Assembly (NCBI GenBank): GCA_035873375.1
Contig: JAYWMQ010000017.1
Span: 728 to 64,727 of the forward strand
Direction: 5' to 3'
DNA from: Nitrospirota bacterium
GTDB taxonomy: Bacteria; Nitrospirota; Thermodesulfovibrionia; Thermodesulfovibrionales; JdFR-85
DNA length: 64,000 nt
Position numbers and translations under genes: made by a program. Positions 53,789-56,125 of this stretch are shown here, in pieces. Each line of letters begins with the position of its first letter. Position 1 is the stretch's first letter. The notes beneath the pieces were generated by a model. The model made no database searches, was not told the DNA's origin, and worked only from the letters and a program-made list of their open reading frames with translations.

Positions 53789-53974
53789 TCAACCCGGCGC
53801 TAATTTAGCACCCTGAAGACTCGCTACCTGACCCTGCATATCAGAATAGAAAGGACATTTTCTGTGGTCCTTGTTTTTACAATACTCCAGAAGCTGAAAA
53901 CGGCTCGGCATATAAGGGGTATCTCCAGCCCTGCAGGATGATACTATCCAGTCTCTAAGAAACGGGCATTTCAT
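53789..53974 (-). CDS. 61-aa Cys-rich peptide P1 (first gene of the PHP-GT4 / radical SAM operon)
   Basis: MKCPFLRDWIVSSCRAGDTPYMPSRFQLLEYCKNKDHRKCPFYSDMQGQVASLQGAKLAPG. A strong GGAGGAGGGAAGGA RBS precedes the internal ATG at 53974, while the track start at 54064 lacks one. Confidence 0.55.
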   Translation of the reverse strand: MKCPFLRDWIVSSCRAGDTPYMPSRFQLLEYCKNKDHRKCPFYSDMQGQVASLQGAKLAPG

Positions 53975-54203
53975 TAATCCTTCCCTCCTCCATAAAAAAG
54001 CAGTGTTTTTACCAAACAGCGCGCTTCCAGAAAAAACAGGTCCTTTATTCACCTTCCCAGTCATGGAATTCTCTGAATACCATGACTCTAAGATAGCAGG
54101 TGCATGTTACAGGGGTATTAAAGAAATGTTAATTTTTACCGGATTCAGCAAAAAGCCTTGATCAAGAAAAGGAAGTGATATGATTGACTCTGAACGGATT
54201 TAA

Positions 54204-54242
54204 GTATCACAAAAGATTCACCTGGATGGTGAATCGTGATAC
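54204..54242 (-). terminator. hairpin downstream of the response-regulator gene
   Basis: GTATCAC-AAAA-GATTCACC / GGTGAATC-GTGATAC gives 15 pairs with a 4-nt bulge. The U tract on the minus strand is weak. Confidence 0.45.
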
Positions 54243-54345
54243 TTTCCTCGGAGGAGGGCCGGATGCCCGACGAGAATGAGTGAAGAGTCTGTCATATCGC
54301 TTCCAACAACCATTTACCTCCGGACAACGGATTCGTGCTTTAATT

Positions 54346-54735
54346 TCACGTCTCCCGGCAGGCCGTATCGAGATAAAACCCGACCTTTCTCCTTAGTTCA
54401 AAGACATCCCCCTTACATATATACCCTGCAACCCCGCATTTCAAAGCCGACTTTCTCAGGCTGTCTTCATCATTTGATGAGTAAAACACCACCGGCACAT
54501 TCCTGGTACTGCCGTTAGTACGGAACAGCATGGAGAGTCTGTCACCGGACAGTGCCGGCATATTAATATCGAGCAGCACAAGGTCAGGCTTGAGTTTCAT
54601 CACTGCACTGGTAGAGCCGATCCAGTGATTGTGGGTAACCACCTCATACCCTGCATCCTCCAAAAGCCCTTTTGCAGCAACAAGATGCCTCTCATCATCA
54701 TCTATAACCAGTATCTTTCTTGCAGTTCTTTCCAT
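54346..54735 (-). CDS. single-domain response regulator (CheY-like receiver)
   Basis: 129 aa. ILVIDDD, the phospho-acceptor context VLLDINMP, and a conserved K. Confidence 0.9.
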   Translation of the reverse strand: MERTARKILVIDDDERHLVAAKGLLEDAGYEVVTHNHWIGSTSAVMKLKPDLVLLDINMPALSGDRLSMLFRTNGSTRNVPVVFYSSNDEDSLRKSALKCGVAGYICKGDVFELRRKVGFYLDTACRET

Positions 54736-55920
54736 CTATAACTCCTTCTTCCCATTATTTTTAAATGGCAGATAAATATCCACGGTCGTGCCTTCACCAG
54801 GCTTGCTCGAGACCGAGATACTGCCTCCCAAAATAGTCAGCAGGTTTCTGGTTATGGTCAGGCCGAGCCCTGTCCCCTCATACCTTTTGGTCCCGGCATA
54901 CTCTATTTGACTGAATGCCTCAAATATCTTCTTGAGGTTGTCTTCCCTGATGCCTATACCGGTATCGCTTACTGATATTTTCAGCCTCTCTTTTTCAGAG
55001 CCAAGGGCCAGAACAATCCTGCCGCTCTCTGTAAACTTTGCAGCATTGTTAATAATGTTGGTCAGAATCTGCCTGACCTTGACCGGGTCTGATACCATGA
55101 ATACAGGTCCATCATGGGCAATCACTTCAACACTTACAGGTTTGTTCCCAAGGAGCACTCGTGTAGTGGCAGCTACCTCACGGAGTATCGGGACCATATC
55201 AAATCTCTCGTTGACGGCCTCCATCTTTCCGGCCTCAAGCTTTGAAAGGTCAAGGACATTGGTTACAATGGCCCTTAAATAGGTTGAGCTGGACATCAGC
55301 ATGGCCAGGCGGTTCTTCATCTGTTCTATATTCCCTTTCTCATACGACATCTTCATAAGTTCTGTCAGCCCGATTATGGCATTTAACGGCGACCTGAGCT
55401 CATGTGTGACATTTGCGATAAACTGTGATTTGATCCTGTTAATCTTCTCAAGGTCCTTTGCCTTTTCCCTTGCCATCTCTTTCTGGATAACGCTGTTTAC
55501 AAGGGCATTACTCTGCTGTATCACCATCTGCTTTACGGAAAGAAGCCCCATATAATTTCCACTGTTGTTCACCACTATTATATCGTCATAAACATTATCT
55601 GTGGGCCTGTCCAATGCTGTATCCATAGCCACATCCAGCCTTTCATCTTCGTGTATAATAAGCGGTTCGGAATCGGCTATTGATATGATAGGCTTTTTCC
55701 CGTAAAGCTCAAACCCGAATCTCCTGAACAACCTGAAGAGCAGTTTGGACCTTGTGGCAAGTCCTACGGGTTCTCTGCATTCAACCAGTGCCACAGCATC
55801 CATACTGCTCGAATTAAAAAACCTTTCAGCCACACAGGTGACTGCAGTGCACGGTGGTATATATTCCCTGGATGTTACCAGTCTTCCAACTGACAGGGAA
55901 TGCTCCTGTACTGATTCCAT
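54736..55920 (-). CDS. cytoplasmic sensor histidine kinase with N-terminal CBS-like domain
   Basis: 394 aa. No TM helix. H-box HELRSPLNAI; N/G boxes (NNAAKFT, DTGIGI, GTGLGL). Confidence 0.9.
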   Translation of the reverse strand: MESVQEHSLSVGRLVTSREYIPPCTAVTCVAERFFNSSSMDAVALVECREPVGLATRSKLLFRLFRRFGFELYGKKPIISIADSEPLIIHEDERLDVAMDTALDRPTDNVYDDIIVVNNSGNYMGLLSVKQMVIQQSNALVNSVIQKEMAREKAKDLEKINRIKSQFIANVTHELRSPLNAIIGLTELMKMSYEKGNIEQMKNRLAMLMSSSTYLRAIVTNVLDLSKLEAGKMEAVNERFDMVPILREVAATTRVLLGNKPVSVEVIAHDGPVFMVSDPVKVRQILTNIINNAAKFTESGRIVLALGSEKERLKISVSDTGIGIREDNLKKIFEAFSQIEYAGTKRYEGTGLGLTITRNLLTILGGSISVSSKPGEGTTVDIYLPFKNNGKKEL

Positions 55921-55939
55921 CTATCTTTCCCCCTCTTTT

Positions 55940-56125
55940 TTATGCCGCCACATCAGCCGTCACATCAAGTGTGTTTTTGCAATTCACTATACAATCCACC
56001 ATGTAGAGCCTGCAGGTTTCGTATTCATAACTGTTCATGTAGCAGCAACGCCCATCTGCACACTCAAGATGTTCCGGCTCAATACCGGCAACCTCACAAA
56101 TACCATCCTTAAACTTGGGACACAT
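55940..56125 (-). CDS. 61-aa Cys-rich peptide P2 (first gene of the kinase / regulator operon)
   Basis: MCPKFKDGICEVAGIEPEHLECADGRCCYMNSYEYETCRLYMVDCIVNCKNTLDVTADVAA. An AAGAAGGGGG RBS lies 7 nt before the internal ATG at 56125. A 19-nt gap separates it from the kinase start. Confidence 0.55.
   Translation of the reverse strand: MCPKFKDGICEVAGIEPEHLECADGRCCYMNSYEYETCRLYMVDCIVNCKNTLDVTADVAA

Follow-up and report, generated by a model that had tools for sequence, protein, structure and literature searches.

Organization of the locus

The sequence analyzed here (the window) is a stretch of 64,000 nucleotides (nt) from a Nitrospirota bacterium; all coordinates count from its first letter. Under study is an island (50071-57815) of three neighboring minus-strand units: a porin O/P gene; a gene for a small cysteine-rich protein, P2, with genes for a histidine kinase and a response regulator consisting of a receiver (REC) domain; and a gene for another small protein, P1, with genes for a PHP-GT4 fusion enzyme and a radical SAM protein. 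The contexts of P1 and P2 were compared among contigs of other genomes, numbered L001 to L042. In minus-strand order, the features of the island, with lengths in amino acids (aa), are as follows.

56449-57627, minus strand: phosphate-selective porin O/P family gene, 392 aa (Pfam Porin_O_P, 3.9e-16, above cutoff)
56368-56393, minus strand: terminator-like hairpin 3' of the porin gene (11-bp stem with 9 GC pairs, then a T run)
55940-56125, minus strand: P2, a 61-aa Cys-rich protein with 8 Cys, preceded by AAGGGGG (Shine-Dalgarno)
54736-55920, minus strand: cytoplasmic histidine kinase, 394 aa (Pfam HisKA and HATPase_c)
55480-55920, minus strand: N-terminal sensor domain of the kinase, about 147 aa, weakly CBS-like, with no transmembrane segment
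54346-54735, minus strand: REC-only (CheY-like) response regulator, 129 aa, without output domain (Pfam Response_reg, 1.6e-17)
54204-54242, minus strand: hairpin/terminator 3' of the regulator gene (-23.8 kcal/mol, z = -6.3)
53789-53974, minus strand: P1, a 61-aa, 4-Cys protein beginning MKCPFLRDW, preceded by GGAGGAGG (Shine-Dalgarno)
51300-53714, minus strand: PHP phosphoesterase fused to a GT4 glycosyltransferase, 804 aa (Pfam PHP/PHP_C and Glyco_transf_4/Glycos_transf_1)
50071-51303, minus strand: radical SAM protein, 410 aa, with a Cys-rich C-terminal region (Pfam Radical_SAM, 1.2e-15)

The P2 stop is separated from the kinase ATG (55920) by 19 nt, and the regulator gene follows the kinase directly. 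Response_reg was the sole Pfam domain above cutoff in the 129-aa regulator. P1 and the PHP-GT4 gene are 74 nt apart, and the start of the radical SAM gene overlaps the PHP-GT4 stop. An earlier reading of this DNA (the original prediction) had described two 61-aa peptides, the 19-nt gap between P2 and the kinase, the regulator directly next to it and the hairpin at 54204-54242; the sequence reads as it stated. The porin gene occupies the equivalent position in L007, L011, L014, L020, L021 and L022. An Rfam scan of 53500-58000 returned no RNA family.

P1 and P2 as protein-coding genes

Homologues of P1 (93, 69 and 64% identity) and of P2 (90, 81, 75 and 63%) were found in Nitrospirota metagenome-assembled genomes from hydrothermal, marine-sediment and groundwater samples, and the expected conservation of both peptides in related genomes was borne out. 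In codon comparisons the ratio of nonsynonymous to synonymous differences (pN/pS) was 0.08-0.15 for P1 and 0.13-0.18 for P2, at pS of up to 0.76; the pair of P2 and its L014 homologue, misregistered by one codon, was left out of this set. Judged by these codon patterns, P1 and P2 are real coding genes under purifying selection. Their starts had been placed at internal ATGs with strong ribosome-binding sites (GGAGGAGG for P1, AAGGGGG for P2). Because the open reading frames (ORFs) of distant relatives have a stop codon or unconserved sequence immediately before this Met, the internal starts are supported. Overshooting ORF calls can conceal real genes of 50-65 aa, which is a lesson for annotation.

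Homologues are 52-67 aa long for P1 and 54-61 aa for P2. Since these lengths vary, the equal 61-aa length of the two window proteins is taken as a coincidence, and the idea that it is meaningful was dropped. The P2 family motif is MCPKF..G.C.VAGIEPEH.EC....CY...EYE.C[RK]LY; P2 does have the eight Cys that were claimed for it, of which just 4-5 are conserved among homologues. The P1 family motif is MKCP.L..W....C.A...PY.PS.FQL.EYC....H.KCPFY.

Neither P1 nor P2 belongs to a Pfam or NCBIfam family, and none of 43 P1-family members matched a model of either library. An exhaustive hidden Markov model (HMM) search of 1.84 billion representative proteins, which covered the P1 family, returned 446 clusters (at 50% identity) with E<=1e-3, 54 of them with E<=1e-10. 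Cluster members were almost all 52-90 aa long, their consensus was MKCP[HY]L.KW....C.A...PY.PS.FQL.EYC....H.KCPFY, and their source names, where looked up and given, read "hypothetical protein". A word-indexed protein search found only close relatives of the peptides, even with a profile query, and literature searches produced no description of either. In the libraries searched, no model or paper was found for either peptide family, for the kinase sensor domain or for a Pho-regulon link.

AlphaFold modeled P1 (43 sequences) with a predicted local distance difference test (pLDDT) score of 73, which is moderate, as a beta-hairpin at residues 6-14 and, after it, three short helices; a Foldseek comparison of this model with the PDB gave nothing below E = 6 and no structural neighbor. 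The P2 model (5 sequences; pLDDT 46) was unusable. P1 and P2 are cytoplasmic small proteins from two separate unannotated families, each with four conserved cysteines, and these cysteines may bind a metal ion or an Fe-S center.

A shared operator upstream of the three units

Alignment of the regions upstream of P1 homologues gave an operator element, TTAACA-N5-TTAAYA-N5-GTAACA, which is a triple 11-bp direct repeat. With three or fewer mismatches allowed, the 64-kb window contained three copies of the pattern, compared with an expectation of 0.06; no shuffle out of 100 had as many. The sites are listed here with their scores under the position weight matrix (PWM) described below.

57788-57815, minus strand: Pho-box-like triple repeat 5' of porin O/P (TTAACATTACTGTCATATTCCCGTAACT), 3 mismatches, PWM 28.1 bits (second in the window); -10-like TAAGAT at 57773-57778; 161 nt before the porin ATG
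56246-56273, minus strand: Pho-box-like triple repeat 5' of P2 (TTAAAGGTACCTTAATAATCACGTAACA), 2 mismatches, PWM 18.2 bits (third in the window); -10-like TACTAT at 56231-56236; 121 nt before the P2 ATG
54105-54132, minus strand: Pho-box-like triple repeat 5' of P1 (TTAACATTTCTTTAATACCCCTGTAACA), exact pattern match, PWM 32.0 bits (best in the window); -10-like TATCTT at 54090-54095; 131 nt before the P1 ATG

All three copies lie on the coding (minus) strand, with a TAnnnT hexamer beginning exactly 10 nt past the third repeat. The porin copy is kept in L007, L011, L014, L020 and L021, the P2 copy in L007-10, L014-16, L020 and L021 (given as six related contigs), and the P1 copy upstream of P1 homologues in L001-7, L014, L016, L020 and L029. 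The PWM was built from 12 sites located before pstS, pstC, an alkaline phosphatase gene and a phosphatase-like gene in L001, L030, L031 and L033. When both strands of the window were scanned the three sites ranked 1-3, and the best score among 20 shuffles was 17.8 bits.

The element was also found before phosphate-acquisition genes in L001-4, L023, L030, L031, L033 and L042. In L030, L031, L033 and L042 the genes behind it are pstS and pstC; in L001-4 they are the P1 homologue, an alkaline phosphatase gene, an acid-phosphatase-like gene and pstS (which has two overlapping arrays). Spacing to the -10-like hexamer is the same in both groups. Because the same element precedes pstS, pstC and the two phosphatase genes in related contigs, it can be read as a Pho box. 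PHO boxes are defined as tandem 11-nt units with seven conserved bases each, the Escherichia coli core being CTGTCAT (PMC4415409). The core of the 11-nt unit described here, CTGTAACA, fits that definition and is close to the E. coli core, and tandem 11-nt direct repeats were found at the -35 position of the units, the P2 site being marginal. Since the operator architecture matches the published definition, the three units of the island are very probably members of the Pho regulon, which agrees with their predicted co-regulation.

Two further observations concern these upstream regions. In L022 (900-938, upstream of pstS) CTAAC[GA] repeats at 11-bp spacing take the place of TGTAACA and score poorly with the matrix; they are probably a lineage-specific variant of the Pho box. 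The P1 leader (53975-54090, minus strand; about 110 nt) holds blocks conserved down to the relative of 69% identity (TGTTTTT...GGAAGCGC...AAAAACAC..TTTTTATGGAGGAG). Orthologous leaders are present in L005 and L007, and the blocks might pair into a weak A-U hairpin ahead of a T run; no Rfam match was obtained.

P2, the CBS-like kinase and the REC-only regulator

L025, L026/L028 and the clades of the window and of L011/L017 all have a P2-family gene directly 5' of the same kinase. In L012 the gene that follows P2, its start codon overlapping the P2 stop, encodes a stand-alone version of the kinase's N-terminal domain (186 aa, 52% identity). The L012 cluster reads P1b (a P1-like type considered below), P2, stand-alone domain, P1, P2, TIM-barrel protein and P1, and is preceded by the best Pho-box score of its contig. 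P2 and the sensor domain are coupled in at least five lineages, as the genes of a small-protein kinase modulator and its target would be, and the original suggestion of a sensor-kinase accessory gained support from this gene order. Direct partnership of P2 with the sensor domain is, in our judgment, evenly poised between true and false.

P2 was also found upstream of pstS in L022 and L023 and upstream of a PhoX alkaline phosphatase gene in L024. In L025, genes for a PhoB-like regulator and a PhoR/PnpS-like kinase (by top NCBIfam matches just below cutoffs) are located directly 5' of the module. The Pfam CBS model matched the N-terminus of the window kinase with E = 0.039 (14.7 bits; cutoff 24) and the stand-alone L012 domain with E = 7e-4 (20.4 bits; cutoff 24), and the best PDB profile match of the sensor domain was the CBS protein 2ef7 (E = 0.034). 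A scan of a genome collection with the sensor domain gave six loci, one of which is doubtful (Hyphomicrobiales, 38% over 64 residues).

Contexts of the P1 family

P1-type genes were found directly upstream of pstS-pstC-pstA-pstB-phoU in L030, L031 and L033, where a frequent cassette consists of an HMA_2-like small protein, P1b, a third Cys-rich type and P1. In L001-4 the P1-type gene lies within 2-4 kb of alkaline phosphatase and pst genes. An operon behind Pho boxes in L037 comprises PHP, a GT21 glycosyltransferase, P1 and P1b. In L042 a tightly packed operon behind Pho boxes (881-919) encodes PHP (230 aa), GT21, a 61-aa CxxC protein, a 70-aa P1b, a kinase 59% identical to the window kinase over its full length and a REC-only regulator; it is followed by P1, hemerythrin, further Pho boxes and pstS. 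The P1b-type gene of L042 fills the slot before the kinase that P2 fills in the window. As far as gene neighborhoods tell, PHP, glycosyltransferase, small Cys proteins, this kinase and REC are a recurring set, though the PHP and glycosyltransferase subfamilies differ by lineage. The single operon of L042, together with the interleaving of P1-type and P2 genes in L012, L024 and L027, is consistent with the functional link that had been proposed for peptides, two-component system and enzyme operon.

L035 (6001-6567; P0109/P0161) encodes a 188-aa fusion protein with a P1 domain at its N-terminus and a REC domain at its C-terminus. Genes for a PAS kinase and a sigma-54 activator are located upstream, a P1b-like ORF precedes the fusion gene, and the contig has no Pho box.

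P1 genes are co-transcribed with small HMA_2 proteins in L030 (5345-6180), L031 (5748-6180) and L033 (194-1260), and with hemerythrin in L042 (6001-6648); L030 and L031 also have a divergently transcribed P-type cation ATPase cluster (HMA_2, DUF5132). These neighbors hint at a metal or redox connection. A 111-aa gene of L001 (3125-3460) lies behind a Pho box of its own. Over the first 53 residues its product shares 72% identity with the N-terminus of the PHP protein from L042, and the rest is a Cys-rich tail, C-x9-C-x15-C-x6-CPVF, like that of the third small-peptide type of L030 and L033; by its sequence the gene looks like a deletion fusion of a PHP...small-peptide operon.

Deletions affecting the region orthologous to window 50071-55920 were seen in L007 (10410-11556), L016 (2600-4016), L005 (4146-6014) and L029 (6179-6487). 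L007 and L016 have lost the GT4 domain along with most of the radical SAM gene, and L005 has an in-frame fusion that joins the PHP domain to the C-terminal half of the radical SAM protein. L029 has P1-PHP-GT4-radical SAM but no regulator, and about 100 aa are left of its kinase. P1, P2 and the Pho boxes are intact in every one of these relatives. The deletions are either real decay of the locus or assembly artefacts of strain mixtures.

Relationship between P1 and P2

The original prediction treated P1 and P2 as paralogues. Pairwise and profile alignments were run and gave no such result: BLASTP of P1 against P2 returned no alignment at E<=100, and hhalign of the family profiles gave P values of 0.03-0.1 over only 9-19 columns, around the C-terminal C..C-x-[LF]-Y stretch or the CP-x-F stretch. 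A forced global alignment of the profiles covered 49 columns with the cysteines roughly in register (P = 0.1). Homology of P1 and P2 cannot be demonstrated from these comparisons of sequences and profiles.

The shared motifs on which the paralogy was based, CP-x-[FL]-x-D-x-I and C-x7-9-C-x-[FL]-Y, are present in both proteins but are not shown to go beyond chance. In six frames the former was found only at the N-termini of P1 and P2, against 0.02 expected; it was derived from these proteins themselves, and its D and I are unconserved in either family. A skeleton common to P1, P1b and P2 can be written CP-x6-10-C-x17-C-x7-9-C-[PRKS]-[LFIV]-[YF], in which the second and third Cys are spaced by exactly 17 residues in all three. 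Among the local and global profile-profile tests of P1, P1b and P2, only that of P1 against P1b was significant (hhalign probability 95%, E = 2.4e-8, one shared sequence having been removed from the profile), and by this profile match P1b is a true relative of P1. In the fold comparison of P1 and P2, whose models have pLDDT of 73 and 46, the CP..C-x17-C-x7-9-C spacing was the sole positive hint.

The PHP-GT4 and radical SAM genes

The best NCBIfam matches of the GT4 part were lipid glycosyltransferases (N-acetylglucosamine-phosphatidylglycerol synthase, monoglucosyl-diacylglycerol synthase and others), all below cutoffs. Its phosphoesterase partner is a PHP domain (PF02811/PF13263) and not a metallophosphoesterase of the PlcP kind. 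In marine heterotrophs the phosphoesterase PlcP and the glycosyltransferase Agt swap phospholipids for glycolipids under Pho control (PMC4796936), and an Agt homologue matters in phosphate-limited Desulfovibrio alaskensis (PMC5193443). By analogy, PHP-GT4 could serve in lipid remodeling, phospholipid being replaced by glycolipid, a proposal made tentatively and with more doubt than confidence. The radical SAM protein matched no curated NCBIfam family above cutoff, and PDB sequence searches with both enzymes gave generic GT4 and radical SAM matches only.

Interpretation

The genes of the island are real, their operator is shared with bona fide pho genes of related contigs, and their neighborhoods recur. 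On balance we favor, with some reserve, a combined picture in which P1 and P2 are accessory proteins of the Pho regulon, P2 partners the sensor domain of the kinase and the enzymes remodel lipids. Phosphate limitation would probably induce all three units through the canonical PhoB/PhoR system, a PhoB/PhoP-type operator (three 11-bp repeats in place of the -35 element) driving each. P2, through a metal or cluster center on its four conserved Cys, would dock on the CBS-like domain and modulate autophosphorylation of the soluble kinase. The kinase would phosphorylate the REC-only regulator, which would work by protein-protein contacts rather than by binding DNA; because a P1::REC fusion (P0109) exists, P1-type proteins may be among these contacts. 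P1 itself would be an accessory or adaptor of the phosphate-starvation module and not an enzyme substrate, and the kinase-REC output would tune the PHP-glycosyltransferase lipid-remodeling enzymes or other starvation functions. The steps of this picture that we infer are induction by phosphate limitation, metal binding, contact of P2 with the kinase and the chemistry of the enzymes.

Several points weigh against it. The Pho box is itself recognized from sequence; the PWM test is partly circular because the training sites were first located with the P1-promoter pattern, and the P2 operator is barely above the shuffle maximum (18.2 against 17.8 bits). P2 persists where the kinase is deleted (L029) and is present without the kinase in L022-L024. 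The CBS assignment falls below the Pfam threshold, so that the sensor domain is called CBS-like only. As the P1 model is moderate and the P2 model unusable, the argument for metal binding is cysteine conservation. In L035 and L040 the P1 family lies among sigma-54 and cyclic di-GMP signaling genes with no Pho box, and because these contexts lack the box the family is not exclusively phosphate-linked. Finally, PlcP and the PHP domain are not homologous, and the picture does not account for the radical SAM protein.

Four other explanations were weighed. That P1 and P2 are not functional proteins, being chance ORFs or leader ORFs that tune downstream expression, would suit short, unannotated frames at the 5' ends of operons; it is scarcely credible given a pN/pS of 0.08-0.18 at pS of up to 0.76, amino-acid motifs kept down to 35-55% identity, the 446 clusters of the P1 family and the occurrence of the genes in several differing positions relative to other genes. 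The original prediction had allowed that P1 might be a substrate of the adjacent enzymes. In the version weighed here, P1 (perhaps also P2) would be the precursor of a ribosomally synthesized and post-translationally modified peptide (RiPP) processed by the adjoining radical SAM protein and glycosyltransferase, as in SCIFF/ranthipeptides or glycocins. P1 does head an operon with a glycosyltransferase and a radical SAM protein that has a Cys-rich C-terminus (C-x3-C-x2-C-x3-C), and there are weak NCBIfam matches to the maturases CcpM, PapB and StsB, confined to the radical SAM core. These matches are far under their cutoffs (CcpM 30 bits against 500), however, and Pfam gave no SPASM domain. This radical SAM gene accompanies P1 in the window clade only, being found in 0 of 9 more distant P1-type contexts, and P1 and its Pho box are intact where radical SAM or GT4 is truncated or deleted (L005, L007, L016). 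Conservation spans the whole 45-aa core with no leader/core pattern, the operon is without a protease or exporter gene, and the best matches of the GT4 domain are lipid glycosyltransferases. The RiPP precursor is very unlikely; the idea was dropped since P1 and the radical SAM gene do not co-occur across the family, and P1 is probably neither a RiPP precursor nor an enzyme substrate.

The circuit first proposed for the locus, which makes P1 and P2 paralogues, gives P2 a sensing or signaling role toward the kinase and has kinase and regulator control transcription of the P1-enzyme operon, draws on the adjacency of the genes, on the shared N-terminal CP-x-[FL] and C-terminal C-x7-9-C-x-[FL]-Y, on the identical C-x17-C central spacing of P1, P1b and P2, on the P1b-type gene in P2's slot before the L042 kinase and on the interleaving of P1-type and P2 genes in L012 and L027. 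Against this stands the want of significant sequence or profile similarity. The regulator, having a receiver domain only and no DNA-binding domain, cannot itself activate the P1 operon, which carries its own PhoB-type operator, and the modules separate: P2-kinase-regulator stands beside PGK/GAPDH genes without the P1 operon in L011, and the P1 operon occurs without kinase or regulator in L029. We consider this circuit unlikely, and transcriptional control of the P1 operon by the adjacent two-component system is not supported. Alternatively, P1 and P2 might be Cys-rich proteins that buffer metals or metalloids, for example zinc, iron or arsenite entering when Pst is induced, with no signaling role. 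Arsenate uptake through Pst is established, each family has four invariant Cys, and P1 is co-transcribed with HMA_2 proteins (L030, L031, L033) and hemerythrin (L042). Only 4 Cys per protein are conserved, though, amid a strongly conserved non-Cys core (PY.PS.FQL.EY in P1, VAGIEPEH.E in P2), which has more the look of a specific fold or interface than of a metallothionein, and both the tight, recurrent coupling of P2 to the sensor domain and the P1::REC fusion point to signaling. Buffering is accordingly held to be improbable.

A bolder extension of the favored picture of Pho-regulon accessory proteins, put forward as rather unlikely, would make P1, P1b and P2 branches of one undescribed superfamily of metal- or cluster-binding adaptors of about 45 residues with four cysteines (CP..C-x17-C-x7-9-C). 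These would plug into the soluble CBS-like kinase and REC-only regulator as a second intracellular checkpoint of phosphate starvation, gating phospholipid-to-glycolipid remodeling (PHP plus glycosyltransferase) by redox, metal or energy status.

Detailed maps of Pho regulons exist for only a few model bacteria. The P1 family is widespread, has no Pfam or NCBIfam model and is often found behind Pho boxes, by pstSCAB-phoU and putative lipid-remodeling enzymes; the second small-protein family, P2, is tied to an uncharacterized soluble kinase with a CBS-like input domain. If the picture is true, these would be new conserved players in the phosphate-starvation signaling of anaerobes such as the Nitrospirota/Thermodesulfovibrionia, and P2 and its kinase a concrete small-protein/kinase pair. 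PHP-glycosyltransferase, plus radical SAM, would be a candidate route to phosphorus-free lipids in sediments and hydrothermal systems, and the four-Cys proteins might prove to be a new class of signaling adaptors.

Other features of the window

A toxin-antitoxin pair (49318-49958, plus strand), in which the gene of a MazE/AbrB-type antitoxin (82 aa) overlaps that of a Fic/Doc-family toxin (131 aa), is located between the radical SAM gene and a large Cache-PAS hybrid kinase (45803-48724). A few kb away from the phosphate island is a nitrogen-assimilation cluster (41641-45578, plus strand; P-II, ammonium transporter, glutamine amidotransferase and glutamine synthetase), in which no Pho-box matches were found. 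The 305-aa protein encoded at 33693-34610 (minus strand) has both an IS200-like Y1 transposase domain and a DnaA C-terminal helix-turn-helix domain.

Comparison with known systems

The P1 operon resembles those of SCIFF/CcpM and the ranthipeptides in that a short Cys-rich ORF heads an operon with a radical SAM enzyme. It differs in that peptide and radical SAM gene do not co-occur, the maturase scores are far below cutoffs and P1 has no leader/core architecture. As in PlcP-Agt, a phosphoesterase and a group-1 (GT4) glycosyltransferase stand behind a Pho promoter, the glycosyltransferase of L037 and L042 being of the GT21 type. Unlike PlcP-Agt, the window has a PHP domain fused to the glycosyltransferase, with a radical SAM gene and small Cys proteins attached.

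WhiB-like (Wbl) proteins are small Fe-S proteins of the cytoplasm; they have four invariant Cys and exert their effect by binding to a partner in a regulatory pathway. P1 and P2 are likewise small, cytoplasmic four-Cys proteins with presumed regulatory partners; they show no sequence or fold match to Wbl proteins, their organisms and partners differ, and a cluster in them is presumed. Small modulators of kinases include MgrB for PhoQ and Sda and KipI for KinA. In Agrobacterium, small DUF1127 proteins act on the sensor kinase PhoR (PMC12501420). These proteins, like P1 and P2, have about 50-60 aa, are genetically tied to phosphate metabolism and are proposed to bind a kinase. There is no sequence relationship (no Pfam family, DUF1127 included, matches P1 or P2), P1 and P2 are Cys-rich, and the putative partner of P2 is a soluble kinase with a CBS-like input domain and not PhoR.

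From the PHO box promoters of PhoB-PhoR (PhoP-PhoR) systems the sites described here differ in that three repeat units are typical instead of two; the regulator gene lies outside the window and its binding is predicted. As in those promoters, 11-nt tandem direct repeats replace the -35 element at a fixed distance from the -10, and the element of the window type precedes pstS, pstC, alkaline phosphatase and a phosphate-selective porin gene. Pho-box promoters and small proteins that modulate sensor kinases are both kinds already known.

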